A DNA stretch of 64,000 nt from Smutsia gigantea. Taxonomy: Eukaryota. The position numbers and the translations under genes are program-made. The notes below the pieces were generated by a model. The model was given only the letters and a program-made list of their open reading frames with translations, searched no databases and was not told the DNA's origin. Shown in pieces: positions 16,821 through 62,359 of this stretch (the first letter of the stretch is position 1; each line of letters starts with the position of its first letter). The DNA is taken from assembly GCA_032199065.1 (NCBI GenBank), contig JAVSCE010011590.1, positions 236,551-300,550 of the forward strand. The letters are read 5' to 3'.

Positions 16821-16943
<123 letters not shown>

Positions 16944-30436: not shown

Positions 30437-30989
30437 TCACCCAGCAGGTTTGTTCTGGTGCCGTGTAGGAACCAAAGCCGTGCCCTGCACAGGGGGCAGT
30501 GCCAGGATGCAGGCGGACAGCTCAGCCTGAGGCCTTGGCAGAGTTCCCAGGCAGAGCCATCGGCCCAGGCCGGGACAGTAAGCATGGATCAGGTGGGAGA
30601 GGGCATAAGTCCGGTGGCTATAGCCCCCCAGCACCAGGAGCTCCCCCTGCAGCGCAGCACCTGCAGCACCCACATGGGGGGAGGGCAGGGGTGCCAGGTG
30701 AGTCCAGCTATCAGTCCTTGGTTCATAGGCCTCAAAGCTCAGCAGGTCCCCAGTCTCACCTAACCCGCCTGCCACATATAACCGCCCACCTAGAGCAGCC
30801 GTGACATGGCCAGCCCGAGGTACCCCCATAGGGCTCAGAAGTGTCCCCGGCTTCTCAAGCTTGGGGTCGTAATGCAGCAGTGAGGCCAGGTATTGACCAG
30901 TCCCGCTGCAGCCACCGCTCACATACAGTCGGCCCTCCAAAACAGCAGCGGCGTGGGCAAAGCGAGGTGCGGGAAGCGCAGGTGCTGGC
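30437..30989 (-). CDS. KLHL-family gene, last coding exon (Kelch repeats, stop at 30437-30439).
   Basis: Minus-strand acceptor ctcttctcccttag then gccagcacc. It translates to RPAPALPAPRFAHAAAVLEGRLYVSGGCSGTGQYLASLLHYDPKLEKPG...GRLYVAGG...GELLVLGGYS...TALVPTRHQNKPAG*, with GG-doublet and Y/W Kelch blade signatures. Confidence 0.7.
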
Positions 30990-31065
30990 CTAAGGGAGAA
31001 GAGGGCACAGGGTCAGCAGCAGTCACCTGCAACTCTCGTTCCCTTCCAGGTCCCCTAGTCTCTCT

Positions 31066-31234
31066 CCCTGCTCACCTCCAGACATTGAGCTCGGGGTCAT
31101 AGGCCTCCACAGAGTTGAGGGCAACACCCCTGTCTCGTCCACCCAGGGCATAAAGTTGTCCGTCCAGAGCCACCAGGGGAAAGAAGCTCCGAGCCTGGCA
31201 CAAAGGCGCCATCTCCTCCCAGTCCTCTTGACTG
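31066..31234 (-). CDS. KLHL-family gene, internal Kelch exon.
   Basis: Acceptor ctctgtccag then gtgggacc; donor ctggag then gtgagcagg. It translates to (R)WDPSQEDWEEMAPLCQARSFFPLVALDGQLYALGGRDRGVALNSVEAYDPELNVWR. Confidence 0.7.
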
Positions 31235-31355
31235 GGGTCCCACCTGGACAGAGTGGGACAAGAGATGGCAAGAGTGACCCTAGGAGTCTGTGGTTGGCTG
31301 GGCCTGCAATTTCCCTCAGCTCCACTCTGGGGCCTGCCACCCTTGGGGCTCCTAC

Positions 31356-32280
31356 CTGAGAGTGGAAGCCAGAATGTTGGAGTCGCTGTAGAAATCCTGT
31401 CCACCACACACGTAGAGTTCACTTCCTGCTAGGCTAGCAGCCCCATGGCGGAAGCGCCCTGGGGCAGGCAGGGCTGGCAGCTGCCCCCACTCCACAGTCC
31501 GAACCAGTCCCGTGCCACAGCAGAAGGCCCGGGCCCACCACACTGCTCGGGATGGCTGCCTTATGGCCATGTCCGATCGGAGCCCATCCCCGCCAATCAC
31601 TACCAGTGCCTGGTCAGGCTCCCTCCGCCTCTCTTGACCTGGAACCTCAGCCTCCACCATCAGCTGATGCAGCAAGTCAGGCGACAGGGGCGGAGGCAGC
31701 CCGGCTGCCCGTACCCTCCGCAGCTCTCTAGTGGACATACGGCCAAAGCGGACACATCGCAGCAGGGCCTTGGCCTCCGACTCCTGGGTCTCGGGGTTGG
31801 CAGCGAGCCAACACCGTGCAGCCACAAAGGCTTCGAACTCCTCCTGCACATGTAGCTCATCGCTGTCTAGGAGTTCAGCCAGACGGGCAGCCGGTAAAGA
31901 AGGGAAAGTGGAGCACAGAGCCACAGCAGGCAGGTGCATGAGGAGGTAGTGACGGGCTTTGCTCCACAGCCTCTCCAACCCCGGGACTTCAGCCATGGGG
32001 AGCAGGGCCAGGCAACGGGCGGGGCTGAGGCCCTGTGCCAAGGCTCTCTGGCACAGGGCCAGGCAAGAAGCACTCTGGTACTGCAGAGCAGCCTGGGCCG
32101 CTCGCAGCAGTCCTGGCCACCGCGCCCGAATGACCCCAGAGTAGGCAAAAGAGACAAGGAGTCGCAGGTCCTGGGCAGAGACGGTGTGTAGAGACACCTC
32201 TGTCCCCTGGGATTCCCTCATCCCGCTCAGGAGCATGGCCCCAAAGAACTCGCTGCCACAGGCCAGTGCTGCCCGGTGCA
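31356..32280 (-). CDS. KLHL-family gene, large exon encoding the C-terminal half of a BTB domain, the BACK domain and the first Kelch blade.
   Basis: A textbook acceptor (ccctctctgcttctcctccttgcag) sits at 32281-32305; the donor is ctctcag then gtaggagcc. It translates to (V)HRAALACGSEFFGAMLLSG...LVSFAYSGVIRARWPGLLRAAQAALQYQSASCLALC...ARCLALLPMAEVPGLERLWSKARHYLLMHL...ALVVIGGDG...GSELYVCGGQDFYSDSNILASTLR. An in-frame TAG lies 9 codons upstream of the acceptor, so the exon must be spliced. Confidence 0.75.
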
Positions 32281-34379
32281 CTGCAAGGAGGAGAAGCAGA
32301 GAGGGGTCCAGAATGCTGCAAACTGCTAGGCACTATCCCGACTTCACAACCCCGGCTCTGGGCCAACCACCCAAGGCCACAGGCCCAACCATGGTGTGCA
32401 TCAGAATGCCATGGGGTGCTTGATAAAATACAGGTTTCAGAGACCCACCCCCACAGAGTCTGAGTCAGTCACCTGGATGGATACCCTAGGGATTCGTATT
32501 TTAACATTTTCAAGCACCCTGCATGATTCTCATGTTAGTGGCCTGAAGATACTGTGCTAGACATTGGTTTAGTCTTTTTGATCCAAGTCAGTTGGAAAGT
32601 CTTGATGGATCAAGTTGAGAAGATGCTACAGACAGCATTTGAGAATAGACAAAATAAACTGCAGAGACCAGTTGCAACTTATACAGGTCTCTCTACATTG
32701 TGCATGGAATAAAATTCCTTTACAATCTTAAGAGCCATTGACATCAGCCATTCTGTTAGACAGATTATACTCAGAAAGTGATACCACATTCAGGGATGGC
32801 TGTAACCTAACTTCTTCTAACTGACATCTCCTCTTGCCCAAGACCCAGTGCTTAAGATTTTCTATGTATTCTAACTCTTTCCCACACACACTCCACAGCT
32901 GCCCCAGCCCCGCCTCCAGCCCACCCCATCTCAGTATAGGTCATGGAATCATGACTTTTTTTTTGAATCATGACATTTTAAACTGGAAAGCTTTAAAATC
33001 ATCTTGTTCAAATGTTCTTTTTTAAGATAAGGAAACTGAGTCCTAGAGGAAGGAAGGGATCTATTTTCTATTCTATTGGTGGCTCTCTGGACAGATCTTC
33101 ACCACCCACTGTCACTGATGTCAGGCTGTTAGTACCCTATTTATCTACATGACCGACATGACACTGAAACTGTTCTATTAACAAGTGCAGTTAAATAACT
33201 GGACCTCATATGCTTTCTAATTGAGATACTTCACATCAAAAATGGAATATTCTGACCAAAATATTTAATTTAAATCTAATCAAATCTTTAGATCTAATTT
33301 CAAGTTCAAAGGAAATTGAGAGGCTAAAGGAACAAATTAAACAAAAGGGAAAACACACGCAAATCTGGATAACAGATCTCTCAATAGGATAACCTGTCTT
33401 GTTTCTTCAATAGGTCAAATCTGAAAAAAAAAAAAAGGAGAGAGGACAGTACAAGAGTAAAGGAAGCTTGGGTAGTGAACATCGGAGCACAGCATGGTCC
33501 TTGATTGGTTCCTGGGTTGAACAAACCAGCCCTAAAAGAGATTTTTTTGGACAAGTGGGGCAATTTCTGTGTGGATTAGGCAATATCCTTTAATAATAAT
33601 TCCTTTTGTTAATTTTGTTGGACATGATAAAGATATTGGGGTCATATGAGAAACGGTCCTCTTTTAAAGAGAAACACACCCAAGTATTTATGAGTGAAAT
33701 GTCACAGATTTACTTTAAACTTCAGTAAAAGCAAAATAAAATACGGAGATGAAACAGATATAGCAAAATGCTCATTGTTAAGTCAGGGTGATGTTTGTGT
33801 CCTCCTCAAATTCCTATGTTGAAGCCCTAGTCGCTAATAGGTTGGTATTTGTAGGTGAGGCCTTTGGGAGGCTATCAGGTATGAGAGTGAGACCCTGTGA
33901 ATGGCATTTGTGGCCCTATAAGGGGAGACATGAGAGATGATTCTCCCTCTGCCATGTGCGGATACAGTGAAAAGGTGGCCTCCTACAAACCAGGGAGAAG
34001 ACCCTAACTAGAACCTGACCATGCTGGTACCCTGATCTGGGCTGCCGGCCTCCAGAACTGTAAGAAATACCTGTAGGTACAAGACCCAGGCTATTTTTTT
34101 TTAAGTAGCCCAAGCTGACTAAGACAGGATGATTTTTCTTCTGGGAATCCCAGAAACACTTTTGAGTCCCAGTCATTCCTCTCATAGGCTGCAGCTATGT
34201 GACGTCAGACATGTCTTGAAGTCTGACTTCTTTATCAAAGTCTAAGAGCTGAACTAGTTAATCTCTAAGCCAATCCCTTTTAGTTTTAAACTGTTATGTG
34301 TCTGTATTCTGACTCCATTTGCCAGGTCCTGTGTGTCTGGTCCTGTGTGTCTTTGCTTTGGCTGTGTAGAAGGCACTGC

Positions 34380-34590
34380 ATGGCCTAGTGAAAGTAGACT
34401 GGGCTAGTGGGCGTGAGCTTGTATCCAAGTTCTCACCAATTAACATCTCTGAGTTTAATGTTCTTTGTCTGCAACTAGCGATAATAGTACTTACCTCACT
34501 AGTTTTCAGGGAGAATGAAAAGAGATAGCATGTGTGATAAAAACTCGTGGTTCCCAGTACCTCACTAAGTGAACGATCTGAATACTCAAG
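34380..34590. repeat. MIR relic in the KLHL intron.
   Basis: ...tgtctgcaactagcgataatagtacttacctcactagttttcagggagaatgaaaagagatagcatgtgtgataaaaactcgtggttcccagtacctcactaagtgaac matches the MIR 3' half. Confidence 0.5.
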
Positions 34591-35298
34591 GCATGCAATA
34601 CTCCTTAGCTTTCCTGCTGATGAGCAGAGTTGACTTCAAAGTTCCATGGCCTGGGAGCCTTAAGATTCTGGCAAAACAGTACCAGACCCTGCTCATTAGC
34701 TGAAGGATCCACATCTGCCATGGTGTCAAGCACACTTAGGTGAAAGGACACGCTGGTTTTTTTTCTGGCTTTTCCTGTGTCCTAAATAGAAGATGCCAAG
34801 AAGGGCCTTTGGTTAATCCCTGTTTGAGTCAATCACTTTCTGCTTGTTCTACTGGCATGAACTGTACCTTTAGCTCTATCTAGCCAGCGGACTGGAAATT
34901 CCTTGTTGCTGGGCACAGGAAAAGCCACAGTGTGGAAGGTCAGCTTAAATCTGTCTGAGCTCCCAGAAAAACAACTCAACTGCGCATGCCCCGCTCTCAG
35001 TGAGTCAGGAGAGGCACCCAAGGCCACCCCAGGGAAATTCTGACTATAGCGGGGATCAAAACCACTATGGTAGGGATCAATCCACCTGCTGCTGGCACAC
35101 CCCATTCCGGCGGCTTATGCACCTGCAGCGATGTAATGCCACACAGGTGCTCACCCAGCAGCCGGCAGCCACCTGCCTCCAGTTCCAGGTCGCACCCGGT
35201 GCCCTCTTGGTACAGGAGCTCGATGCTGCGCAGGTTCTCCTTCAACTCTTCTGCCTGGCTGGGCTGCTTTTCATCTTCCCGCCTGCCTCCAGTCCCCT

Positions 35299-35689
35299 CA
35301 CGTCTCCACTGGGCCGCGGCCTTCACTCTGGGTGCTCCTAGGGCCTCGGCCGCTTCCAGTACACCCCCCCAAGGGGCGGGGCCCAGCACCCCCTCATAAG
35401 CAAAGGTCAGTACGGCTTCCCAGGCCCCCGGGGCCACGTCGAGACTAAAGGGGGGTCGTGGACCTCCACCGCCCAGCAGCCTGCCTCGGAAGAGGCTGCT
35501 AACCGCAGCCAAGATCACCCGATGCACCCCGTATACTCGCCCCCCGACTGACACCTCTTCGTCCACCAACAGCTTTTGTTCCCGCAGCCGCTGCGCCTCC
35601 GCAAAGAACTGGCTCGGATGCTCCTCGCTGCGCAGCGCTTCGGACTCCGCCCCACCTTCTGCGTCCTCCTCTTCCTCCTCTAGGGACAT
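35299..35689 (-). CDS. KLHL-family gene, candidate first coding exon (ATG at 35687-35689, acidic N-terminus, then a complete BTB-like segment). The 3' boundary is unresolved; a candidate GTGAGG donor lies near 35298 and the track ORF runs on to 34997.
   Basis: MSLEEEEEDAEGGAESEALRSEEHPSQFFAEAQRLREQKLLVDEEVSVGGRVYGVHRVILAAVSSLFRGRLLGGGGPRPPFSLDVAPGAWEAVLTFAYEGVLGPAPWGGVLEAAEALGAP..., embedded in a CpG island. Confidence 0.5.
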
Positions 35690-36560: not shown

Positions 36561-38465
36561 TGTTGTTTTTCTGTGAACAATACTGAGGTGAAATGCAAAC
36601 GTAACCAGGCTGGGTCCACCGAGGGCGGAGGTTGGGGGAAGTAAAGGGAGGGCGGTCAGGGCTAGGATCCTAAGTGACCGGGATTTCTTCCCAGTCCCGA
36701 GGTAGGTTCGGTGGTGAAACAGCGAAACCCAGCCCTGCGTCTTCAGAAGGAAGGAGTCTGAGGGAATCTGATCTCACCTTGGTCGCTGGGATGAGGACCA
36801 ATCTCCGCAGCTGCGGGGACCGGAGTCCAGGGCTGGATGGGCCGGGGGCGCGATACCGTTTTTTTAAATTGAATAATAGTTCACGTACAATGCTATATCA
36901 GTTTCAGGTGTGTAACACAGTGACCCAAACTCGCTGTTTGAGGCAGGACACCAATAGCCACCTCCTCTGCCAGGGCCAACACTCCTTCCTCATCTTGAGA
37001 CACCCCTAATTCTGGGCAATCACTTTTCACTGCAGTTCATTTACCTTCATGCGGAAGGAGTTGAGGGAAGCGGCATCGCTGCCCCTTCCCTGAGGAAGAG
37101 GTAGGGACAGGTCAAGGGCTGCTGGGGGCGGATACCCTGTCCTTTAATAAGACTGGTCCAGGCTGGATAGATAGGACAAGCTGGCTTAACCAGGGATAGA
37201 AACACGATTGTCTCTCTGCACTCAGGTGAGAAGGGTGGTGCTCATGTGGGGGGGGTGGGGGTGGGGCGGGAAGGTGGGCTGCTCCGCACAGCACCCTCCT
37301 CCAGCTTTGGGGAACTGTCCCCAGCTCCCCACTTGCCGGTTGGGTACCCGCGCCCACCCAGAGGCAGAGCAGTGTAGCTGCGTGCTGCACTCCCCAAAAT
37401 GGTTCAGTGGAGAGAGGCAGCCTGTGATTGCCTGGACAGAAGGGGCGATGATGACCAGCCTCTACACCCTCTCCCCCATCTCAGACATCTCGGACCACTC
37501 CTATGGCTTCCTCGCAGCAAGACAACGCGGCCAGCACCATGAGTCCCCATCTTGAAGAGAAGGAGCCGCCATACCCCAGGTCGGCATCTGCCCTCCCACC
37601 ACCTGAAAGGACAAGAACACTGGGCCACACTCTGAGTCCCATGCCGGCTCTACAGTCCTGGGACAGCTTCATTGCAGTGAGACTCCGGAGGCTCTGTGCA
37701 GCAATGCCACGGTGAGACCCACGACCCCCCAGTGAACACAGAAGGCTGGATAAAGCCTGCTGTTCTGGGCCATCAGCCACCCTCCATTAAGGCCCTGGGA
37801 CTGACCTCCCCCCATAGCACCTCCAAGTATGTTAGCTGCGGTCCTGGTCCCTGACTTAAGAGCATCCGTGCTGTCTTAGTCACACGAGAGCACAGCATCC
37901 ATCTCCACAGAGGAGCCCCACACCCAGCCGCACCCCCAGAAAGAGGATCTGGATAATTCGTGGGCCAGGCCTGACAAGGCCCAGGGCTGCCTCACCGGAG
38001 TCATGGTACTGGGTGATGCTCAGGGTTCCCCGAGTTAGGGGATCTAGGTGGGGGAGAGAACGTCACTCCGGAGGGGCTCTTGAAGGGTGGGGCTGAGGGT
38101 GACCCCGGTTCCTCACTCACCATCCTACTCTCCTAGACATGCTGTCTGCTCAAGAGCTGGGGCACCACCCTCTTCCTGCGGCCGCCTTCGATCACTGCTC
38201 AGGCGGGCATAGGTGTGGGCTCAGGGCTCTGCTGGGTAGCAGGGGTTCAGGGACCCTGGGAATGAGTTAAAGGGTCCCTATTCCCATCTCCACCCCAGGG
38301 CTCACATGGCTCATTACTCTGCTCTCAGCTTCAGTCCATACTATCCCCAGCCTGTCTATCTCAGCCATTTCCACCAACTGCCAAGGCAAGGCTGGTGAGT
38401 CTGCTGCAGTTCCATCATCTCTCAGGGTCCCTGGTTCCGTCAGATGCAGCCAAAACCACATCTTC

Positions 38466-38516
38466 CTCTCCTCTCCTCTCCTCTCCTCTCCTCTCCTCTC
38501 CTCTCCTCTCCTCTCA
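38466..38516 (+). repeat. (TCTCC)n pyrimidine microsatellite that forms the polypyrimidine tract of the 38518 acceptor.
   Basis: tcctctcctctcctctcctctcctctcctctcctctcctctcag. Confidence 0.85.
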
Positions 38517-38867
38517 GGTGGCAGGTACTTCTTTATCTTGCACAGCCTGGTTCCCGAACTTGGCGAATCCATCGGGATCATCTTCGCTTTTGCCAACACA
38601 GTAGCTGTGGCTATGCACACAGCAGGCTCTGCAGAGACCCTTTCGGATCTGCTCTGGGTAAGGCCCATCCCTCCTTTGGTTGAGTGCAGCCTGCAGTCAT
38701 TTTAAGAATCAGATGGAGGCATCAAATCAGAGAATGAAGTCTCTGTGACCCTCTACCTCTGCCTTCCAGGAACATGGGGTGCAGCTGCCAAACATGGATC
38801 CCAAAAATGAGTTTCGGGTGATGGGTGTGGTGACTATGACCATCCTTTTGGGCGCGGCACTGGCCGG

Positions 38868-38932
38868 TATGGAGTGTGCGTGTGTGTGCGTGTGCATGTG
38901 TGTGTGCACGCGTGTGTGTGTGTGTGTGCAGC
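38868..38932 (+). repeat. (GT/GC)n dinucleotide microsatellite directly at the 3' end of the 38770 exon.
   Basis: atggagtgtgcgtgtgtgtgcgtgtgcatgtgtgtgtgcacgcgtgtgtgtgtgtgtgtgcag. Confidence 0.85.
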
Positions 38933-41900
38933 TGGCACAGCAGATTCCCAGGGGCCGAGACCTGCACCTGGACAGTTTTGCTGGAGGAGACTCCACACAC
39001 CAATTCCTCAGGGGACAAGTAAGGAGGACTCATTCCGAGGCTCTGCTGGGGCAAGCACTAACAGGGCTCCCAGATAAGAAGTGCCCTGTCACCTGCTCCC
39101 AGATATTTACAGTCTTGAGATGTGCCCCTCTGGCATGGGAAGGGACACTGCAGTTTGAGGCAAGAAAGAAAAGGACACCATTTAGCCAGACTCTGGGGAA
39201 GAGGCTGGCGGGAAAGGGAACCAGAGGATGGGAGAGGAGAGGGAAGATGAGACAAGGAGAGGGAGGAGGTGAAGTAGTTACTCCTTCCTTTCCACTCATA
39301 TTTCTCCTGTTTGTTTGTTTTTATCTCCCATAGTATATAGGCCCAAATGATCTCCTTCTTCCTGATCCTCCTCTCTTTTATCAATTACCTTCTGGGGACA
39401 CTCCTCCCCACACACCCCAGCTGACAAGCCACTGGCTTCTTTGGGTACCAAGGTAAGTCAGTGGGAAGCTGGCTGAGAAGTGCATTAAGGGGCATGAATG
39501 CCTCAGAATGTCATTTTTCCTTGGAGCAGGGGACCTCATTAGCCCAACCCTCCTCAGAAAAGCCCCCTTCACTCTGATTCTATATGCCATCTGCGATCAT
39601 TAGGAGACCTCTAAGTCCCTGGGCTGGCTAGTTTACAAACTTCCCTTCTTCCCAGCTCAGCTAAGTTACTGACACTCAAGTGTGTAGAGGGGTAATGGTG
39701 TTGGCTGAATGAAGGGAAGCCAGGAGGTTCTACTCAAAACACCATCTTTTCTCTCTGCTCCTTTGTAGGAAGTATTTTCTTGGAAAATACAGTGCCACAG
39801 CGGCATGGTCCAGAAGGCAGCTTCTCGGGCATGTTTTCCATCGTCTTCTCCTCAGCCACTGGGATACTTCCCAGGACCACTATATCTGGCGACCTTAAGG
39901 TGAGAAGGATGTCCAGGCACAGAGCACACACTCTCTCCCCTCCTCTACCTTCACTAATAGTTCAAGTTTTGTTCCCAGGACCTTGCTACTGCTATCACCA
40001 AAGGAACCCTCCTCGCCATCATGTGGACCACACTTTCCTACCTGGGCATCTCTGTCACCAACGGTAAGGCCCTCCACTCCTGCCTACTGTGCACCGTGAC
40101 CTGGAACCTTTGATTTCTGCTTCTCTGAGGAGCTAGGGTATAGGTGATGAAATGAGCAAGTGGCATTCATCAATCACATTCAAAGTAGTTTACCCCCCCA
40201 CCACCAACATTTCTCCCCATCCCTCATTTCATTAATGAATTGTAGGGCATTCTTTGAGCATCCAATTTCATTACCCCCCAACCCACCATGCACACATACT
40301 TCCAATCTCCCCTTTAACATGAATGGTACCCAGATAGATCTACTGTGTTGGGATGGGGGTCTCTCCCCATGAAGGGGTGTGCATCTTTTATCTCATTTCC
40401 AGGTTCCTGTATGATTCGAGATGCTTCAGGAAATATCACTGACATGGGTGTGCAGAATGGGAGCTGCATGGGGCCAGAGCGTCAGTATGGCTGGGATTTC
40501 AGCAGTTGTCGAGAACAAAGGACCTGCCACTATGGGCTCTCTAATTACTACCAGGTGAGTGAACCAGAGAAGAGTAGGGAAATAAATCTTACCTAGCCCA
40601 TTGTCCAGCACAGAGAAGATGCTCAAAGGGAAGTAATGACTTAAGTGAATTCATGTGCGTGGGGTAAAACTCTCAAAAATGGAATAAAATATAATACACC
40701 ATGCAACTTCTGGGAAAGCAAGGTAAAAAGATGGGTGGAATGCCTTGCTTCTGGAATGCACTGATTTCTGCCTCTGCCTGCCATTCTCCACAGGCAATGA
40801 GCATAATACCTGCTTTCAGCCCCCTGACGTCTGCTGGAATCCTCAGTGCCACTCTGTCCTCTGCCCTTTCCTGCTTTGTTTCAGCCCCTAAAATCTTCCA
40901 GGTTAGTTGGTATCTTACCAAGAGGCTTTGGAGAGAAAGGAGAGAATGTACATAGACAGTGCCATCCCAAGGTATAATTTTTGGGGGAGGAGGAGCAAAA
41001 GAAGACCCAGTCTCAGCAACCAGGGCCTACATGGTGACTGAGGGAGATGGAGATGACTGTGGTTGGCTGGTGTTTAAGAGACAATCTAAGTTCATATAGC
41101 AACATTCAAAGTCTGCCCATAAATCAAGGCAAAGTCTGGGGAGGGATCACTCTTCCATCTGCCTCCTCTGTTTTTCCCACCTCACATTCTCAGGGATGTC
41201 ACTACACTCTATTCCATCTATCCATTCTTCCTTTTAAGACCCCTAAGCTCCCTCGGCTCTTCTCTCTGTACTCCTCACTCCCTCTCACTGCTCTGGAGGA
41301 GCAGGGGGCTGTCATTCTCCCTCCTCCTGGGACCCTCCCCAATGACAGCCATGCCTTTGTACAGCGGCTGTGCCAGGATAAGCCATACCTGGTCATCGGC
41401 TTTCTGGGGAAAGGCTATGGCCAGAAACATAAGCGTGTGCGAGGCTGTCTGTCCGCCTTCCTCATGGCTGCAGCTTCCTCCTTGCTGGCAAGCGCTCCTC
41501 CTCCACCCAGGCTCATTGACCGCCTTTCCCCTCATGCCCCCCACTCCCTACCTAAAGCATCTTTTCTCTCTAGTCCTGAAAGTGGGTGGAAACACCTGCT
41601 AACTTGGTGGCAGTGGTGGTGTTTGTGATGGTGGGGTGGGGAGTAGGGAACAGGGAGTGCAGGGACGGGGAAGCCCGAAGATGTCCTTAATCCCCTAGAC
41701 CTGGATCCCATGACCCAGTTTGGAGACTAACCCCTTGACCTTTCATCTCTCTCAAAGCTGATCTGAACACCATTGCCCCCAACATCTCCAACTTTTTACT
41801 CTGTTCCTATGCCCTCTTTCCACGCTCCCTTCGTCAGTTGCCTGGTTAGTATGGGCAGGTGTTGGGGTCAGGCCCAGGGCTGGGAGGACCTGGGAGAATC

Positions 41901-44900
41901 GGAGAAGCATCCTTGAGGTGCAAGGGTGGGTGGTACTGAGGCTGGGACAAGGGACGGGTTGCATTTGCTCTCCTCTGCAGGCTGGCACCCCTCCTTCCGC
42001 GGGTACAGTCCCTGGCTTTCCCTCCTGGGCTCTCTGCTCTGCCTGCGCATTCTGTTCCCCCTCACTTGGTGGGCAGTGCTCATCGCCATGTTGCTTAGCC
42101 TGCTGCCGCTGCCGTGTGCGTTCTACAAGAAGCCTGGTGAGTGACAGGGCAGGTAGCTACGGGAGTGAAGGAGTGAGACACAGCAAGAGGCTGACCCCCA
42201 CTAGAAGCCCAGAACTATCCCACCTCTAATGGTTCTGCACCACCCCTTCCTCTGCGCAAACATGAGCGGGGGCCCTGTGGTCCAGGCGGCCTTCTGTCAC
42301 ATGGCACTGTCCTACTCAGTGAACCCGACCAATGCGCAGGACCATATCAGGAACTTCCGGTAAGGGAGTCCCTACACAAGCGCTTGAAACCTGGTGGCAT
42401 CTGGACTGCAAATGGGTTTTGTTCAGATTACACAGCATTTAAAATTTCTAAATTAGTTGCCAACATTATGTATCTGGGGTCCTGGCGCTCCATCCACATG
42501 ACACACTTGGCTGGAGCCAACAGCGGCTGTCCGATGGGATACGGCAGGTACTCTCCAGTTTGTCACAGTTCCCACCTGGTTCACTTCATTCTTTGTTATT
42601 ATATGACTGGTTCTTGCAGGCTTTGAGTTTTCAATTCCTGCTCTAGACTAAAAGGAAGCCAGTTTCCTAAAGTCTGGCAGGGGCAGTGGAGGAGAAGGAA
42701 GGGAACAGAGTCCGAGCTGGGTAGAGATGGGTTCCCTGAGGAGGGGGTTCTCCATGGCAGGACAGATGCTACAGGATCTGGGTCCCAACCTCCCTCACTG
42801 GGTTGTGAGGTGGAGAGGCCTCTCTAACCCTCATGGTTTCTCCCTTAAAATCCTCTATAAAATCCCCCATTGGGTGGGGAAGAATTGCTTACTGCTTGAA
42901 CATTCCCCTACCTCTTTCTCCATAGGCCACAGTGCCTGGTTCTCACAGGTCCCCCCAGCCAGCATTCAGCCTTGGTGGATTTTGTGGGGGCCTTCACCAA
43001 GAACACGAGTTTCATGATCTGTGGGAATGTGGTCTCGGTAAGAGAAGTGGGAATGGGAGGGGACTGGGTTGGAGATTCTAGACTGGAGGGAAATAAAAGG
43101 AATGAGAAGATCCACAGGTCAGTGGGCTCAGGGAACCTGAAAAGTGTGAGGGTCAAGCAGGATGCTGAGGGACTGTCCCCAGCCTATATTTCTGCCTCCC
43201 CTTCTTAGGACCCCCAAGCTACTCAAGAGTCCAAGAATCACGTCAAGTGGCTCAATGTCCAGAAGGTTCATTCATTATACGGTCATATCTGTCCCCAGGC
43301 TACGTTCTGGGGCACAGAGCCTCATGCAGGTCAGCTGCCACACTGCATCCTTCTTGTCACCCTTTTGCCCAGCGTGTCATATCCCCTTCTTTCCTTACTG
43401 CCTCTCCTTTCAGGTGGCAGGTCTGGGCCACCTGAAGCCCAATCTGCTGGTCTTAGGATATAAGGAGAATTGGCAGGAGGTGCCAATACCAGCTGTGGAG
43501 GACTGTGTTGGCATTCTGCGGTAAGCGCTGGGAGGAAAGGTGAAGATGGGCTTAGAAATGGTGAGGAGCCAGAGGAAGAAGAAACACAATCATGGTGAAG
43601 CCCTTTTCTCTCCAGCTGCTCAGCAGCCCCTATATGCCCAGGAAGGGGAACATCCCTCTCGTCAGCTCTTGCTCCTAATCTCCTTTTTTCTTCCCCATAA
43701 AGAGATGCCTTTGACCACAACTATGGTGTCTGTCTCTTAAGGATGCCAGGGGGGTAAGCCTGGCTACCCAGCTTCAAACTCAAGGTGAGTCAAAAAGGAG
43801 TGGGCCTAAGAGGAGGATAAGGTGTGGGAGGTATAGAGACTGGCCGTCAAAGACAGTCAGGGAGCCAAGGGCGCTCGTTTAGTTACCAAGGCTTGAGGCT
43901 GAAGAGAATCAGGTCCTAGGATGTGAGAAAAATGAATTTCACTTGGAAGATCCTACCTATAGGCTTAGCTCTCCTGAAACCTTAGGGATGGGGGAAAGCT
44001 CTCAAGTTATCTTCTCAATTCAGGGGGCAGAAATGTGAATTAGGAGATACCAAGTGGGAGGGTGAGGGAGAGCTGGAGGGTGGTCAGGAAGGATATGGCC
44101 CAATCCCAGAGCAGGATGTCCGGCACTATTCCAGTCCTATACTACCACATCGAACTAGCTTACACTTGGGGGTCCTCACTGAATGGCTGGGCTCAAGGAA
44201 GGATGCAAAAGACAACTTCTTTTGCATTATACCTCCACATTTCCCAGTAAATCCAAGGGGTTTGGATACCATAGGTATGGATACTCAGCAGGGAGAGGAG
44301 ATGAATCCTAAAACAGGGTTTTAGAGAAAACAGTTTTGGGAAGTGGAAAGAGTAGTAGGCACCCAGTAAAATGGACAGAAAAGGGAATGTGGTTAGTCAA
44401 TGGAGAGAAAAGCCATATGGCACTTCTGTGGGATAGCAACAATTTTCTTCGGGGAGAGGGGAGGTATGATATTCAGTTGGGAGTAACTGCTCAGCTGGGT
44501 AAGGAATTTGTCTCATTCTTTCCCTTTTTCTTCTTGGGCAGTATCCTTACACTGGCAGCCTCGAACCTTGTTCTGCTCCAAGCAGGGCCGGTGGACAGTG
44601 GACGTGTACTGGCTCAGCAGTGATGGAGGTATTGGACTCCACGGCTCTCGAAAAAGCCCCAACTCCTCTCCAAGTTCCAGAGAACAAGAGTGGGAGGACA
44701 GGGATATAAAAACTAGGGAGGACTTCAGAACAAACTCTGCATTTACCAAGTACCCAATGCTCTCCTCCTACCTCAGAGGCCTTTGCTCTCTTCCCAGTCC
44801 CCAGGGATAGTGGGCAGGGAGGCTGCCTTCCTCGCCTCCCCTCCTCACAGGGCTGATGCTGCTGAGCCCCTTTCTACTGACGCACAAGAAAAACTGGGCT

Positions 44901-47410
44901 CAGTGTCCCGTAAGAGTTTTTGTGAGCAGTCCCCCTGAGTATCTGGAGGAGAAACACACCAGTGAGCAGGACATGAAAACCCAAGGTTATGCCTAAAGTG
45001 CAGAAGCCAGGAAGGGGAGGGGAGGGTGTTGGGCCACTTGCCCAGATGGAGGGATAGGAAAAGGTGCTGGGAAATGTAGGCAAATGTCCGGTTCCTCTCT
45101 CGTCTTGCCCTAGGATACGTGCCCTCCTCAGAAGGTTCAGGCTTGGCTCCCAGCATGTGACTCAACTACCTGACCTCACAGGCAAACCTCAGGACATGAG
45201 ATCAGGACCCAGCCCCTGCCCCAGGGCACTCCTGCTCTGCCTGCCCTCCTTCTTCACAGAATAGCAAGGAGCAAGTGTCAGACAAGCTATATTCTAACAA
45301 GCAGTGGGAGGAGGAAGTGAACCTTGAGGACTGTGGTGGGGAGTAAGCACAAGTAGCTATGGGCTCTACTTACATCAGAACGGGGTTATTCTTACCAGTT
45401 TGGAAAAATCAAGGATCTTAGGCAGCAAAACAGAGAAAAACTGTAAAGTGAGGAAGCTTTATTTTTCCTAAATTCCTAAGGCAGACATTTCAGGGAAAAG
45501 ATACTTCCTGCTCCTTGCTGAATCTAGAGTTTCTTTCTCTGCAGCCAAAAGGCTTTCAAAGACCTGGTGGCCTTACACCAGTTGCAAAAAGCACCACCAA
45601 AAGGGAGACTTGGAATCTACTTCTCTGAGCACTCCTGCTCCTTCAGGCTACATCTCTGAGTGGGATCTGCAGGCAAACCAAAAGCAGGTACATAGGAACA
45701 GGGCCAGCAAGTGGGGCAACTGTCTCAGAGTACAAGCTGATAATGGCACATACCCTGCCCTCTGCTCGGTCTTCCCAACCATGTAGTCGGAGTGGCACAT
45801 GTGTCTTCGTGAAGTCCTATGGCAATATTCCCAGGACGCTGCCCTCATAGTTATGTGAGTGTGGGAAAATGCCAAGCTGCAGGGCAAAGATCCCAGGGGT
45901 AGGGCTGGACCAAAGGCTAGATAAGCTGAGAAACAGGCCGCATTCCTCACGCTGCCTTCCTTAACAGGGGCCTGCCTATGATCCCTCGGTCAGCCTGCCC
46001 TGGGGCCCTGTGCATGGCCTGGCTGGAGATGCTGTCCAGGGGCCTGACACCCCCCATTGCCTTCATCCATGGGCATCAGCAGGACACACTGCCCCTGTAC
46101 CACCAGTGAGAGACTGAGGAGAGACTGAGCCCGGAGGAGAGGCCCACACCTCAGCGCTCAAGGAGCCATGATCTTGGCTCAGCAAACTTGGCGGGGCTGT
46201 CCTTGGGAGGCCTCAAGCAAGAGCCCAAAGCTTCCTAGGAAAGAACTTCCATTCTGAGCGACACCGAAGGGGTGACAGTGCTAAGGAAGATCCTCCATCT
46301 CACTCCATGACATTAATAAAAGCCTAATACCCAAGGCTAATGTGTAATAATATGCTTGGTTCCCATTTATAAAATCAACTCCCCACGCCTGCAGGGAAAG
46401 AGATCATTCCTGTTCTCAAGTATTTTCAAGGAGAGGAATTTATCTTCTATCTCCATCCCAAACTGTTTCACCCCTAAGTTTCTGATTTTGAAATTCGATG
46501 TTTTAGCACATGTTCGACCATTTATGGGTCTATACTTGGTAAATGAAAAAGTGTTTAGCACCACTTTCTACTTAATAACTCATCAGAAACTTACTCTTTT
46601 CCCAACCTCATATGATCTCAATTCTTTTTACCTTTCAGCTTATCTCCCCCATCAGCTTATTCATTCATTCAGCAAATACTAATTCAATGTCCACAATGCA
46701 CCAGATCCTATTCTAAGTACTGGGAAATGATATGGTGATGAATGTGACAGGCTAGTGATCCCCTCCTCTCACAGAGTTTATGTTCTAATAGGAGAAGATA
46801 ATAAACATAAAGAGAACTTTAAGATTAGAAGGTGATTAAGCACTACCAAGAGAAACGAAACAGGGGAGGGGGCTCGAAAGTGCTGAAGAAGTGCAATTTT
46901 AAGTAGGTTTGTCAATTTTAAGTAGACCTCACTGAAAAAGAAAAAATGTTGAGACAGACTTAGACATGGACTGAATTACATCTGAGGGAAGAGCTTCTCA
47001 GGCAGCGAGAGCAACAAGCATAAAGACCTTGAGGGGCCAGCACAAGCCCACCTTCAGTGTGTAAAGAAAACCCCAAAAGCCAAATTTGCTGGAGCAGAGT
47101 GAACAAGGTGGTAAATACCAAGAAATAAGGTCAAAGCAGTAAATAGGGAGGGGTGGGGCAGATCCTGGAGGGCCTTCCAAGGACTGGTTTTTACTCTAAT
47201 ATGGGAAAACACAGAGGATTTCGAGAAGAGTGACATAATCTGGCTTCTGTGTGAACACTGTTCACTCTGGCTGCTGTGTTGAGTATTGCAAGTGGGCAAT
47301 GATGGAGGCAGACAGACCGGCTATTGCAATCATCTTGGAGATGGATGATTCTGGCTCAGTCTAGGGTGGCAGCAGTGGAAGTGAGGAGAAATGGGATTCT
47401 AGATATATTC

Positions 47411-51249: not shown

Positions 51250-54200
51250 TCAGGAGTACACTTGCCTGTGGCCAGCATCCGCTGGGCTGCATCCTATGAT
51301 TAAAGAGAAAGCAAACAGATAAAATAATGAATAGTAGACTCTTCTCCTGAAGCCAGGTCAAAAGAGCGACGGGACCACTGCTAATTTCAGGAAAAAACCC
51401 ATTATTGTAGAACCACTGCTGACTCTGAGGCCAGTGCAATTGTGGTGTGTCTTTCACCACGTTCTGGGCAGCTTGTCAGCAAACCACACGTGCCAAATGA
51501 GGCAGGAAAATCAACTGAAAGGCTGTCAGCCAGCTTTCCAGTATGCAAAAGTTGAAGGTTAACTGGGGAAAAAAGGCTCCTAGGAAGTTCACTAACAAGG
51601 AATAAATAGTTTGGTGGGCACAAGGTTTAAGCAGCAGAAACTCATTTTCTCATAGTTCTAGACGCTACAAGTCCAAAATCAAAGTTCCAGCTGATTTGAC
51701 TTCAGATAATCATCATAGTTCTGTATGCAGAAGAAGTGCTTTGAAGGACTGGATTAAAGATGGCAGCATGAGAGGTGAGACAGAGACCTCCTCCTAAAAG
51801 CACATATAATATGAAAATATAATTTAATACAACTAATCCTGAAAGAGCAACAGGAAAGAAGGCTGCATCAGACTGCATACACCCAGAAAAAAAAGAGCAG
51901 ACCTAACGGAACAGGGTAACGTACCAAAGCTGTGACCCGGCGAGGCCCAAGCCCTTTCCCTACCCCAGCTCACTAGCAAGAGGAAGAGAAACAGAGCAGG
52001 CAGGGAGTGGAGGCCTGGGGCCGCTGAACACCTAGCCCCAGAGATCTGCTCTGGGAGCATGAACCTACACTGCATGGTGCTATGGTGATTTAGTGTGGTT
52101 GGAAAGCTAAGACAGGCAGAATACCTGGAAAGATGGAGATTCCAGGTGCTTGTGGAAAATGGATTCATGTCTGGCTGATCTGGGTGGGCAGTCTGAGAGA
52201 CTTCCTAAAAGCGAGAGGGCTGCTAAAGGGGCAAGGATTGCACAGAGCTTAATGCTCAGGAGAAAGGACAGGTAGACAAAACAGTCTGGGTGCACTGTGC
52301 CCAGCAGGTTGGGAGCTTAAACGATCTTCAGGGGCTCCATCCCACTGGCTGGCTATGCAGCTCCAAGGCCCCCCACCATGATACGCAGCCTGCTGTGTCT
52401 TCCTCCCGGCTAGACTGTACCTGGATCAGGCTCGCAAACCGGCAACCCCTGCCCAGGCGTCAGGCCAGACAGAGGGAAGCCCCACCTATGGCAGCTACAA
52501 ACACAAAGCATAGAGGCTTACACCCGTGTGTTCAGCCCACTGGTTCTGGCAGTGTGGACAGGCATAGCAGCTGGGAAGCAGGAAATAGCTCTTTCCTCCC
52601 CCCAAGCACCAACACCGCTCCCCTGTGACCACCAACATTGCTCCAGGGGCTGAGCAGCTCCAGAAAGTAGAGCTTCTGGGCACTAAAGGGCACCACAGAC
52701 AAATTATGAAACGTCAAAGGAACCTGGTTCAAAGCAAAATTATGAACACACCTGAGAAAGATTCAAAGAAAATCAACCTCATGAATCTGTCTGAAAGAGA
52801 TTTCAAAATAAAAATCATTAACATGCTCATGGAGGTACAGAAAAATATTCAAGAACTCAGGAACGAATTTAGGATGGAGATCCAATCATTGAAGAACACA
52901 ATGGAGGGTATTAAAAGCAGATTAGATATGGTGGAGGAGACGATAAATAAAATAGAAATTAGGAAAGAGGAATACAAGGAAGCTGAGGCGCAGAGAGAAA
53001 AAAGGATCTCTAAGAATGAAAGAATATTGAGAAGAACTCTGTGACCAATCCAAGTGGAACAATATTCGTATTATAGGGGTACCAGGAGAAGAAGAGAGAG
53101 AGAGAGAGAAATTGTCTTTGAGTAAGTAATTGCTGAAAACTTCCCCAATATGGGGAAGAATATAGTCTCTCAGGCCATGAAAGTGCACAGATCTCCCAAC
53201 ACAACACCAAGACATATAATAATTAAAATGGCAAAGATTAAGGATAAATAAGGACAAACTATTAAAAGCAGCTAGAGAGAGAAATAAGATCACAAAATAG
53301 AAAACCCATCAGGCTATCAGCAGAAATCTTACAGGCCAGAAGGGAGTCGCATGATGTATTTAATGCAATGAAGCAGAAGGGCCTTGAACCAAGAATACTT
53401 TATCCGGCAAGATTATCATTTAAATTTGAAGGAGGGATTAAACAATTTTCAGATAAGCAAAACCTGAGAATTTACCTCCCACAAACCATCTCGACAGTGT
53501 ATTTTGGAGGGACTGCTATAGATAGAAGTTCCTAAGGTTAAATAGCTGTCACCAGAGGTGATACAAAGGGTTAGACAAAGAGTACAGAATATGATACCTA
53601 ATATATAAAGAATGGAAGAGGAAAAAAGAACTTTAAATGGTGTTACCACAAATCTAAAGCCTGCAATGGCAATAAGTACATACCTATCAATAATCACCCT
53701 AAATGTAAATGGTCTGAATGCACCAATCAAGACACAGAGTCACTGAATGGATTAAAAAACTGTATGCTGCCTACAAGAGACTCACCTCAAACCCAAAGAC
53801 ATAAAAAACCTAAAAGTGAAGGGATGGAAAAAGATATTTCATGAAACTAATAGGGAGAAAAAAGCAGCTGTTGCAGTACTTGTAACAGACAAAACCGACT
53901 TAAAAACAAAGAAAGTCACAAGAGACAAAGAAAGACATTACATAATGATAAAGGGGTCAATCCAATAAGACGAAATAACCATTATAAATATCTTAGCACC
54001 CAACACAGAAGCACCTACATATGTGGAACAAATAGTAACAGAATTAAAAGGGAAAATAGAATGTAATGCATTCATCCTAGAAGACTTGAACACTCCCCTC
54101 ACACCAAATGACAGATCAACCAGACAGAAAGTAAGTAAGGAGACAGAGGCATTGAACAACACATTAGAACAGATGGACCTAACAGGCATCTACAGAACAC

Positions 54201-56805
54201 TCCATCCAAAAGAAGAGGATACACATTCTTCTCAAGTGCACATGGATCATTTTCAAGAATAGACCACATACTAGGCCATAAAAAGAGCCTTGGTAAATTC
54301 AGAAAGATTGAAATTGTAACAACCAACTTCTCAGATGACAAGGGTATAAAACTAGAAATAAATTGTACAAAGAAAACAAAAAGGCTCACAAACACATGGA
54401 GGCTTAACAACATGCTCCTAAATAATCAATGGATCAATGACCAAATTAAAACAGAGATCAAGCAATATATGGAGACAAATGAAAACAACAGCACAATGCC
54501 CCAACTTCTGTGGAATGCAGCCAAGGCAGTGCTAAGAGGGAAGTATGTTCCAATACAGGCCTACCCCAGGAAAGAAGAAAATCCCATATGAACAGTCTAT
54601 ACTCACAATTAGTGAAACTAGAAAAAGAAGAACAAATGAGGCCCAAAGTCAGCAGAAGGAGGGACATAATAAAGATTAGGGCATAAATAAATAAAATTGA
54701 GAAGAATAAAACCATAGAAATAATCGATGAAAGCAGGAGCTGGTTTTTCGAGAAAATAAACAAAACAGATAAACCCCTAGCCAGACTTATCAAGAAAAAA
54801 AGAGAGTCTACACACATAAACAGAATCAGAAATGAGAAAGGAAAAATCACAACAGTTACCACAGAAATACAAAGAATTATTAGAGAATACTATGAAAAAT
54901 TATATGCTAACAAACTGGATAACCTAGAAGAAATGGACAACTTTCTAGAAAAATACAACCTTCCAAGGCTGACCCAGAAAGAAACAGAAAATCTGAGATC
55001 AATTACCAGCAACGAAATTAAACTGGTAATCAAAAAACTACCTAAGAACAAAACACATGGACCAGATGGCTTCACCACTGAATTTCATCAAACATTTAGT
55101 GAAGATCTAATACCTATCCTCCTTAAAGTTTTCCAAAAAGTAGAAGAGGAAGGAATACTTTCAAATACATTCTATGAGGCCAGCATCACCCTAACACCAA
55201 AACCAGGCAAAGACACCACAAAAAAAGAGAATTACAGACCAATATTCCTGATGAACATAGATGCAAAAATACTCAACAAAATATTAGCAAACCAAATTCA
55301 AAAATACATCAAGAGGATCATACACCATGATGAAGTGGGATTCATCCCAGGGATGCAAGGATGGTACAACATTCGAAAATCCATCATCATCCACCACAAC
55401 AGCAAAAAGGACAAAAACCACATGATCATCTCCATAGATGCTGAAAAAGCATTCGAGAAAATTCAACATCCATTCATGATAAAAACTCTCAACAAAATGG
55501 GTATAGAGGGCAAGTACTTCAACATAATAAAGGCCATATATGACAAACCCACAGCTAATATCATACTTAACAGTGAGAAGCTAAAGTATTTCCTCTAAGA
55601 TTGGGAACAAGACAACGATGCCCACTCTCCCCGCTTTTATTCAACATAGTACTGGAGGTCCTAGCCACGGCAATCAGACAATACAAAGAAATAAAAGGCA
55701 TACAGATTGGTAAGGAAGAAGTCAAAACTGTCACTGTTTGCAGATGACATGATACTGTACATAAAAAACCCTAAAGAACCCACTCCAAAACTACTAGAAC
55801 TAATATCGGAATTCAGCAAAGTTGCTGGATACAAAATTAATACACAGAAATCTGTTGTATTGCTATACACTAATGATTAACTAGCAGAAAGATAATCAGG
55901 AAAACAATTCCATTCACAATTGCATCAAAAAGAATAAAATACCAAGGGGTAAACCTAACCAGGGAAGAGAATGACCTATACCCTGAAAACAACAAGACAC
56001 TCCTTAGAGAAATTAAAGAGGACACTAAAAATGGAAATACATCCGATGCTCTTGGGTAGGAAGAATTAATATTGTTAAAATGGCCATCCTGAGGACTTCC
56101 AGGAAGATGGCGGCATGAGCAGGGCAGCAGAAATCTCCTCCCAACACTATATTTATCTACGAAAATACAGCAAATACATCTACTCCTAAAAGAGAGACCA
56201 GAATACACAGGAAAGCGCACAGTGTGCAGCTACACCCGAGAGGACTCGGCACCACAAGAGGCGGGTAAGATACGGAGCTGCGACCCGGCGGGACCCGAGC
56301 ACTCACGCACCCCAGCGCACCAGTGGGAGGAGAGGATTCAGAGGAGGGAGGGAGTGGAAGTACACCCCGTGAAGTAGCCAGCCCCGGTGATCTGTGCGGG
56401 GAGCGCTGACCCACATTGCGCAGTGTAGCGGAGATTGGAGAGACAGAGGGGCAGAATCTGAGCGGGGAACGCGCCAGGGTGCTCGCGGTCGGCTCCCAGG
56501 AAGGGAAAAAAAAAGCGTGCACTTTCTTCAGCGGTCTTAAAGAGACAGGAGCCCAGCGGAGGAGCCGGATCACCCCGGCACACTCAGCCCAGCAGGCTGG
56601 GAGTCTTGGAGAGTTTCAGATGCCTTAGCTGGCGACTGGGGAAGCGTAGCCATACTTACACTTCTCACTAAGATCAACAGCCTCCCATTCGTTCCCACCC
56701 CGGCCAGAGCGATAAAGGGCCCTGCGGAGCGGCACAGTCAAAGCTGCGGAATAGTGGGGCAACAGCACCACCTACAGCATCCCCACAGAATCTACCCCCG
56801 GTGGG

Positions 56806-56912
56806 TGTTTTTTTTGTTTTGTTCTGTTTTTTTTTGGTTTTCTTTTTTGTTTTTTCTTTTCTTTCTTTTTGACTTTCTTTCCTTCTTTTTTTTTCTCTTT
56901 TTAAAGTCTTAA
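56806..56912 (+). repeat. T-rich, (TTTTC/TTTG)n-like low-complexity block inside the L1-D 5'UTR, immediately upstream of ORF1.
   Basis: gtgggtgttttttttgttttgttctgtttttttttggttttcttttttgttttttcttttctttctttttgactttctttccttctttttttttctctttttaaag. Confidence 0.8.
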
Positions 56913-56930
56913 AGAGCCCAGCTGACATAT

Positions 56931-57764
56931 GTGGCAACTACCAGCGACACTTCTAGAGCCGTGAAAAGAAAGAGTAATATGGTTCAGACCAAAATAAAAC
57001 AGACAACCCCAGAGAGGAAGTCTGAAGGGATGGAAATGCACAGTCTTCCTGAAAAAGAATTCAGAATAAAAGTCATAACCATGCTGATGGACCTACAGAG
57101 AAATGTGCAAGAGCTGAGGGAGGAAGTGAGGGAACTGAGGAAAGACAATACAGAAATCAGACAAGCGATCGACGGGCTTAACAGCAGAATGGATGAGATG
57201 CGAGAGACTGTTAATGGAATAGAAAACAGAGAACAGGAGTACAGAGCAGCTGAGGCAGAGAGAGATAAAAGGATTTCTAGGAATGAAAGAATATTAAGAG
57301 AACTGTGTGACCAATCCAAATGGAACAATATTCACATTATAGCAGTACCAGAGGAAGAAGAGAGAGAAAAAGGGATAGAAAGTGTCTTTGAAGAAATAAT
57401 TGCTGAAAACTTTCCCTCGCTGGGGAAGGAAGTAGTCTCGCAGTCCACTGAAGCTCACAGATCTCCCAACACAAGGGACCCAAGGAAGACAACACCAAGA
57501 CACATAATAATTAAGATGGCAAAGATCAAAGATAAAGACAGGGTATTAAAGGCAGCTAGAGAGAGAAAAAAGATCACCTGCAAAGGAAAACCCATCAGAC
57601 TATCATCAGACTTCTCAACAGAAACCTTACAGGCCAGAAGAGAATGGCATGATATATTTAACGTTATGAAACAGAAGGGCCTCGAACCAAGAATATTGTA
57701 TCCAGCACGATTATCATTTAAATATGATGGAGGATTAAACAATTTCCAGATAAACGAAAGTTAA
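56931..57764 (+). CDS. L1-D ORF1, intact at 277 aa.
   Basis: Track ORF 56931-57764: MATTSDTSRAVKRKSNMVQTKIKQTTPERKSEGMEMHSLPEKEFRIKVITMLMDLQRNVQELREEVRELRKDNTEIRQAIDGLNSRMDEM...RILRELCDQSKWNNIHIIAVPEEEEREKGIESVFEEIIAENFPSLGKEV...MAKIKDKDRVLKAARERKKITCKGKPIRLSSDFSTETLQARREWHDIFNVMKQKGLEPRILYPARLSFKYDGG. Confidence 0.85.
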   Translation: MATTSDTSRAVKRKSNMVQTKIKQTTPERKSEGMEMHSLPEKEFRIKVITMLMDLQRNVQELREEVRELRKDNTEIRQAIDGLNSRMDEMRETVNGIENREQEYRAAEAERDKRISRNERILRELCDQSKWNNIHIIAVPEEEEREKGIESVFEEIIAENFPSLGKEVVSQSTEAHRSPNTRDPRKTTPRHIIIKMAKIKDKDRVLKAARERKKITCKGKPIRLSSDFSTETLQARREWHDIFNVMKQKGLEPRILYPARLSFKYDGGLNNFQINES

Positions 57765-62260: not shown

Positions 62261-62359
62261 ACTTGATAATATGGATAAGTGTAGTAACCACATTGTTTTT
62301 TCATGTGAAACCTTCATAAGAGTGTAAATCAATGATACTTTAATAAAAAATTAAGAAAA
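62261..62359 (+). mobile_element. Tiny 5'-truncated L1 insertion (about 99 bp of 3' terminus plus poly-A) at the same target site as L1-D. It is bounded by the second and third copies of aaaatggccatcct.
   Basis: acttgataatatggataagtgtagtaaccacattgttttttcatgtgaaaccttcataagagtgtaaatcaatgatactttaataaaaaattaagaaaaaaaa is the older-type L1 3' terminus, not the L1-D type. Confidence 0.7.

Follow-up and report, generated by a model that had tools for sequence, protein, structure and literature searches.

The SLC12A10 (NCC2) locus of the giant pangolin, very probably a unitary pseudogene

Gene structure and orthology

The window analysed here is a 64,000-nucleotide stretch of the giant pangolin genome (Smutsia gigantea; assembly GCA_032199065.1, contig JAVSCE010011590.1, positions 236,551 to 300,550). 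Positions 37503–46109 of its + strand hold a 25-exon, intron-bearing gene of the cation-chloride cotransporter family, arranged head-to-head with KLHL33. Three-frame translation reveals short open segments matching Na-coupled cation-chloride cotransporters between 37.5 and 46.1 kb (+). The gene model was determined using a custom protein-to-genome aligner that allows introns and frameshifts, with horse and donkey SLC12A10 as queries, and every junction was inspected in the DNA. Reptile proteins are too patchy as gene models for exons 21–23; exon 23 was settled by the donkey protein together with the DNA. The model extends from an ATG at 37503 to a TGA at 46107–46109 and comprises 25 coding exons with a total length of 2835 nucleotides, listed below (TM, transmembrane helix). 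An initial annotation of this DNA had counted about 20 exons and placed the start at 37208, which is a mere mechanical TTG start of an open reading frame (ORF).

37503–37676 (+): exon 1, MASSQQ...ERTRTLGHTLSPMPALQSWDSFIA; donor GT; remnant of the N-terminal phospho-regulatory motif RTxGxNT
37880–38005 (+): exon 2, SHESTAS...ARPDKAQGCLTGVM; conserved FGW motif gone; three-residue in-frame deletion relative to horse; AG and GT intact
38137–38212 (+): exon 3, TM1, TCCLLKSWGTTLFLRPPSITAQAGI; many substitutions, including the invariant Trp of LPW to Ser
38299–38394 (+): exon 4, from spliced alignment and junction check
38518–38657 (+): exon 5, changes at invariant S, R, G, V and F
38770–38874 (+): exon 6, EHGVQLPNMDPKNEFRVMGVVTMTILLGAALAGME; lesion at the 3' end
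39341–39452 (+): exon 7, AQMISFFLILLSFINYLLGTLLPTHPS, then an in-frame TGA, then QATGFFGYQ
39769–39899 (+): exon 8, TM6, with the GILAGANISGDLK loop; invariant G to R and N to T
39979–40063 (+): exon 9, from spliced alignment and junction check
40403–40554 (+): exon 10, extracellular loop, SCMIRDASGN...CHYGLSNYYQ
40794–40901 (+): exon 11, TM8, from spliced alignment and junction check
41365–41487 (+): exon 12, RLCQDKPYLVIGFLGKGYGQKHKRVRGCLSAFLMAAASSLL; lesion at the donor
41758–41844 (+): exon 13, TM10, DLNTIAPNISNFLLCSYAL//FPRSLRQLP; paired deletions
41981–42136 (+): exon 14, TM11–12, WHPSFRGYSPWLSLLGSLLCLRILFPLTWWAVLIAMLLSLLPLPCAFYKKP
42257–42359 (+): exon 15, (A)NMSGGPVVQAAFCHMALSYSVNPTNAQDHIRNF; acceptor lesion
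42926–43037 (+): exon 16, from spliced alignment and junction check
43209–43329 (+): exon 17, DPQATQESKNHVKWLNVQKVHS/YTVISVPRLRSGAQSLMQ; frameshift
43414–43520 (+): exon 18, VAGLGHLKPNLLVLGYKENWQEVPIPAVEDCVGIL
43703–43784 (+): exon 19, DAFDHNYGVCLLRMPGG/SLATQLQTQ; frameshift
44542–44628 (+): exon 20, (V)SLHWQPRTLFCSKQGRWTVDVYWLSSDG
44851–44962 (+): exon 21, LMLLSPFLLTHKKNWAQCPVRVFVSSPPEYLEEKHT; donor lesion
45114–45200 (+): exon 22, IRALLRRFRLGSQHVTQLPDLTGKPQDM; donor lesion
45545–45687 (+): exon 23, QKAFKDLVALHQLQKAPPKG\DLESTSLSTPAPSGYISEWDLQANQKQ; frameshift
45787–45854 (+): exon 24, SEWHMCLREVLWQYSQDAALIV
45968–46109 (+): exon 25, GLPMIPRSACPGALCMAWLEMLSRGLTPPIAFIHGHQQDTLPLYHQ, followed by the ancestral stop TGA at 46107–46109

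The 24 introns retain AG at 23 of 24 acceptors and GT at 20 of 24 donors, giving 43 canonical splice dinucleotides out of 48, and their presence rules out a retrocopy. Colinearity with NCC (SLC12A3), the Na-Cl cotransporter sensitive to thiazides, already noted in the initial annotation up to the LYHQ end, was recovered by tblastn and spliced alignment from the exon ending in GCLTGVM (37880–38005) to the exon containing CMAWLEMLSRGL and ending in LYHQ and the stop (45968–46109). The reconstructed protein matches the chains of human NCC structures from electron cryo-microscopy with an E-value of 1.6e-268 (phmmer), and Pfam identifies an AA_permease domain (6.8e-63) and an SLC12 C-terminal domain (2.1e-88). 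No AA_permease_N domain was found by Pfam in the reconstructed N terminus, so that the homology of exon 1 is drawn from a short motif only, the RTxGxNT remnant, which was judged by eye against MRTFGYNTVDVVP of NCC. Intron 4 contains a (TCCTC)10 microsatellite at 38464–38515, which reads on the opposite strand as an ORF of 'ERRGE' repeats.

A protein database search with a 477-residue concatenate of the clearest segments returned 236 proteins at E <= 1e-20. The top match is 'solute carrier family 12 member 10 [Equus caballus]' (BDR32795.1; E 2e-192), and the other top matches are horse UniProt entry A0A5F5PY88, a Smutsia gigantea hypothetical protein and a fragment from the white rhino named 'SLC12A3-like'. 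Sequences of true NCC, that of Manis javanica among them, ranked well below these, with approximately 50% identity. In a 47-sequence alignment, the reconstruction shows 75% identity to the rhino fragment, 72% to horse SLC12A10 and 48–56% to NCC2-type proteins of reptiles and frog. Identity to Manis NCC is 50% overall and 57% in the membrane core, lower than the 65–70% core identity to NCC estimated previously, and Manis NCC and Anolis NCC share 79%.

Neighbour-joining analysis with Kimura distances (534 columns, 200 bootstraps) places pangolin with rhino and horse at 100% bootstrap support and nests this group, at 82.5%, in a clade with the non-NCC sequences of reptiles and Xenopus. Manis NCC belongs to the NCC clade, from which the pangolin sequence stands apart. 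Teleost slc12a10 forms a group of its own outside the tetrapod non-NCC clade, and the orthology between the teleost and tetrapod genes accordingly rests on published synteny work rather than on this tree. By sequence comparison, the locus is the giant pangolin orthologue of SLC12A10 (NCC2/NCCbeta) and not SLC12A3. The initial annotation had anticipated as much: it proposed a paralogue of SLC12A3 with a KLHL neighbour in head-to-head arrangement and named the SLC12A10/NCC2 lineage, and the 50% identity to Manis NCC, the grouping with horse and rhino and the presence of KLHL33 on the - strand all agree with it. It had named, as the outcome counting against a paralogue, a position among SLC12A3 orthologues at normal branch length; this was not observed, the sequence lying outside the NCC clade. 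The motif changes that it quoted are likewise present, namely CLLKSWGT from 38143, ARPDKAQGCLTGV in 37880–38005 and the TM6-loop change in 39769–39899.

Disabling lesions and loss of constraint

Ten lesions were found in the SLC12A10 locus, including three uncompensated frameshifts (exons 17, 19 and 23). They were called against two equid references, horse and donkey, and read directly from the DNA. The initial annotation mentions no in-frame stop, frameshift or broken splice site, all of which the locus contains. Exon 7 carries an in-frame TGA at 39422–39424, at a position occupied by Arg in horse, donkey and rhino (THPSRQATGFFGY in rhino). At the end of exon 6, a (TG)n microsatellite (38875–38930) replaces the donor and the last four codons, which are WESK in horse and NCC; the dinucleotide after 38874 is TG, followed by a TG-rich run.

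Four further lesions affect splice junctions. Exon 12 is without a GT donor; the single site that resembles one, GCAAGC at 41488, misses the phase of exon 13 by one base, and both spliced alignments require a -1 shift at this junction. The acceptor of exon 15 is CG (42255–42256), and the two nearest upstream AGs give either the wrong frame or a stop. The donor of exon 21 reads AG/TG at the phase needed by exon 22, and the only GT, at 44962–44963, would end the exon one nucleotide early, in a phase that does not suit exon 22; the phase assumed at this junction is that of the homologous human NCC exon, as is its length. Exon 22 ends at an AT (45201–45202), with no GT in the next approximately 60 nucleotides.

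The remaining four lesions are insertions and deletions within exons. Exon 13 combines a 14-nucleotide deletion at approximately 41817 with a one-nucleotide deletion about 10 nucleotides further on, which together restore the frame; five TM10 residues (VNFGC) are lost and three residues are scrambled, and the +1 frame reads a retained 'FHA'. The frame of exon 17 is shifted by a two-nucleotide deletion at approximately 43275 (TCATTATACGG). In exon 19, a one-nucleotide deletion after a G-run (43749–43754) brings a TAA (43755–43757) into frame. Exon 23, which is a single frame in donkey, has a one-nucleotide insertion in an A-run (45597–45600). Across the exons the reading frame is interrupted, and usable splice sites are missing from some of the junctions.

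Two candidate lesions were rejected and a third call was relocated. A frameshift at 38015 with a non-canonical intron in the TM1 region is an aligner artefact, the DNA having a GT-AG intron at 38006–38136, and a 13-nucleotide 'WESK' mini-exon at 38932–38944 is an artefact of the same kind within the TG-rich region. A frameshift called at 41470 is unneeded there, the missing base being located at the exon 12 donor.

Constraint was measured over the 103 alignment columns in which 44 other Na-coupled cotransporters show no variation. Changes at these columns number 26 among 100 covered in pangolin, 13 of 103 in horse and 6 of 66 in rhino. Among the residues replaced in pangolin are Trp in the LPW of TM1, three residues of ISRSLGPELG (S, R and G) and two of GILAGANISGDLK (G and N); residues invariant in the subfamily are thus altered in TM1 and the TM6 loop, and TM10 has lost five residues. 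The terminal branch in the neighbour-joining tree is 0.207 for pangolin, 0.05 for horse and 0.093 for rhino, and the Pfam AA_permease score is 213 bits for pangolin versus 316 for horse. The motif changes in TM1 and elsewhere reflect a decaying gene rather than an altered specificity.

The equid SLC12A10 proteins (BDR32795.1; A0A5F5PY88; donkey A0A9L0ISN3) resemble the pangolin locus in exon order, in the AA_permease and SLC12 C-terminal domains and in a divergent TM1. They differ in having Arg at the site of the pangolin TGA and a single frame in each of exons 13, 17, 19 and 23, whereas in the pangolin sequence invariant positions are changed twice as often and the terminal branch is four times as long. 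TM1 of equid SLC12A10 reads CMLHMWSV in place of CMLNIWGV, and the equid models are not uniform, some skipping or extending exons relative to others. The 13 of 103 invariant changes in horse would fit a weakened constraint in equids. Motoshima and colleagues (2023) reportedly described many truncated splice variants from the horse gene and a constraint on that gene that may itself be weakened, which would agree with these changes.

A Smutsia gigantea protein in GenBank, KAK2498915.1 ('hypothetical protein MC885_003943'), is identical at 485 of 485 residues to 38139–42141 (+), in 11 blocks, a match that assigns the window to this species and probably to the assembly behind the protein. It reads exon 3 (TM1) and the stop-bearing exon 7 in wrong frames, extends into the introns flanking exon 12 and omits exon 13. 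This protein is an annotation artefact that holds an open frame through a broken gene, and it is unfit for use as a transporter sequence.

Interpretation of the locus

The SLC12A10 locus of the giant pangolin is, with high probability, a unitary pseudogene: the disabling mutations lie in an intron-containing locus, and the equid proteins and complementary DNA (cDNA) are intact. The protein database search returned no other pangolin SLC12A10-like protein, the genomic scope being the 64-kb window. SLC12A10 is an ancient SLC12A3 paralogue, and the pangolin gene would still occupy its ancestral position beside KLHL33 and TEP1. It has acquired a nonsense codon, frameshifts, splice losses and replacements of invariant residues, while all 25 exons stayed recognisable. 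Translation of a correctly spliced transcript would end at the TGA, at position 267 of the 950-position reconstruction and before most of the membrane domain. The exons beyond it could not be joined in frame, TM10 is mutilated, and no full-length transporter could be made; nonsense-mediated decay is the expected fate of any transcript. We infer that the locus has no residual function. Relative to SLC12A3, it shares the subfamily and the colinearity from TM1 to the C terminus, but belongs to another clade, has other neighbours and encodes no protein.

Several points weigh against a pseudogene. The locus is represented by a single assembly, and three lesions involve one base within or next to a homopolymer (43749–54, 45597–600 and 44961–63), each of which alone could be an assembly error. 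The junction calls at exons 12, 21 and 22 assume a conserved exon phase, taken for exons 21 and 22 from the exon lengths of NCC, and the equid references are gene models or splice variants and not verified full-length proteins. In an alternative that the homopolymer indels favour, the gene would be intact in the animal and the lesions would be errors of assembly or sequencing. This is very unlikely, since four of the lesions are base substitutions, the least error-prone class (the TGA, the acceptor AG to CG, and the donors GT to AT and GT to GC), the 14-nucleotide and two-nucleotide deletions lie outside homopolymers, and the neighbouring KLHL33 is free of lesions over 533 codons. The excess replacement of invariant residues is, moreover, independent of indel errors. 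A functional, divergent and tissue-restricted second Na-Cl cotransporter, as in horse, would be in keeping with the 25 exons in order, the 43 of 48 canonical splice dinucleotides, the C-terminal stop at its ancestral place and the existence of horse cDNAs of SLC12A10 (BDR32795.1). Against such a transporter stand the exon 7 TGA, three uncompensated frameshifts and four broken junctions, the deletion of five TM10 residues, the replacement of 26% of invariant residues, including those in TM1 and the TM6 loop, and a sole annotated protein, KAK2498915.1, that is open only via out-of-frame exons and intron read-through; we regard it as highly improbable. The initial annotation had envisaged a 'tissue-restricted or decaying' cotransporter: only decay fits, a second working Na-Cl cotransporter is contradicted by the TGA, the frameshifts and the lost splice sites, and the proposed bearing on salt handling in kidney or sweat glands finds no support in this analysis.

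The relatives of the locus are often named 'SLC12A3' or 'SLC12A3-like' in databases, and its colinearity with human NCC could be that of an SLC12A3 pseudogene, duplicated or processed. The retained introns, the 50% identity to Manis NCC versus 72–75% to horse and rhino SLC12A10, the tree position outside the NCC clade and the flanking KLHL33 and TEP1 leave this origin a negligible probability. It is unlikely that the locus is a transcribed pseudogene that keeps some role as non-coding RNA or truncated protein, driven for instance by a promoter shared with KLHL33. Its head-to-head position, with ATGs approximately 1.8 kb apart in a G+C-rich stretch, and the preservation of most splice sites would suit such a role, but splice-site preservation is equally expected from a short time since inactivation, and no sequence feature calls for a function. 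A further possibility is that the locus, as a pseudogene, is still transcribed from a promoter region common with KLHL33.

In the passages of PMC11381001 and PMC11145369 that concern this gene, SLC12A10 is described as retained in horse, zebra and platypus, which answers the question raised in the initial annotation of whether a mammalian copy had been described. The corresponding passage of PMC11381001 has the gene deleted or pseudogenised in birds and in the majority of mammals, and that of PMC11145369 places the mammalian pseudogenes 'at the same chromosomal locus'; for retention and loss, the source given in both is Motoshima et al. 2023 (Physiol Genomics 55:113). As far as these passages describe them, the published pseudogenes are the same gene with the same fate, a unitary NCC2 pseudogene in a placental mammal. 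The pangolin case is an ordinary SLC12A10 pseudogene of this already described class. It indicates no second functional mammalian Na-Cl cotransporter, and its significance is mainly one of book-keeping.

Equids and the rhino lineage retain open frames, and the loss in the pangolin lineage would therefore be independent of the primate and rodent losses and of those in other mammals. The former coding sequence of 2.8 kb carries about eight indel events, which, together with the recognisable state of all exons, suggest approximately 10 to 20 million years of neutral decay, a rough estimate of ours from typical mammalian indel rates. Because none of the 25 exons has disappeared, 43 of 48 splice dinucleotides are preserved and the lesions number only about ten, a late, independent loss, with the gene working well into the evolution of Ferae or Pholidota, may be put forward tentatively, as a possibility that we hold to be rather doubtful. 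If true, pangolins would add one more dated, independent case to the repeated mammalian loss of NCC2. The base-level lesion map of the pangolin pseudogene could help to date these losses.

Neighbouring genes and repeats

The genes flanking the SLC12A10 locus are KLHL33 and TEP1, which were compared with the literature statement on the locus only. A full-text literature search turned up no paper that mentions KLHL33 along with slc12a10. In the human genome, TEP1 and KLHL33 lie next to each other on 14q11.2, and SLC12A3 on 16q13 between NUP93 and HERPUD1. The features of the two flanking genes are as follows.

30440–35689 (-): KLHL33, with Pfam BTB_KLHL33, BACK and Kelch matches; 91% identity to human KLHL33
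32236–31356, 31243–31076 and 30989–30440 (-): KLHL33 coding exons, from spliced alignment to human KLHL33
35689–34997 (-): upstream BTB-containing ORF with an ATG; second BTB domain
326–1159 (-): TEP1 (telomerase-associated protein 1), first coding exon; five TEP1_N repeats (E 4.7e-98)

KLHL33 served as an internal control. Aligned to human KLHL33 with the same aligner, it shows three exons, all bounded by GT-AG introns, with no stop or frameshift over 533 residues, and its intactness indicates that the lesions are specific to the cotransporter gene. The ORF at 34997–35689 (-) probably belongs to a longer KLHL33 isoform. The ATGs of KLHL33 and SLC12A10 lie approximately 1.8 kb apart, head-to-head, and the G+C content is 0.55–0.59 over 34–38 kb.

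Within the first coding exon of TEP1, a tandem array at 726–1159 (4.8 copies of a 90-bp unit, 98% identity) corresponds to the 30-residue protein repeats of TEP1 and not to a non-coding satellite. In the very G+C-rich stretch at 5547–6344, both strands carry long ORFs that are spurious, and Pfam gives no match; the position of the stretch suggests a CpG island comprising the TEP1 promoter and 5' untranslated region. LINE-1 fragments occupy most of the window beyond the three genes, and CpG-rich promoters are also present. Fragments with ORF1-like and reverse-transcriptase-like ORFs are located at 2610–3820 (-), 14164–24115 (+) and 52625–63312 (+), and one LINE-1, at approximately 19.7–24.1 kb, is nearly full length with a broken ORF2.

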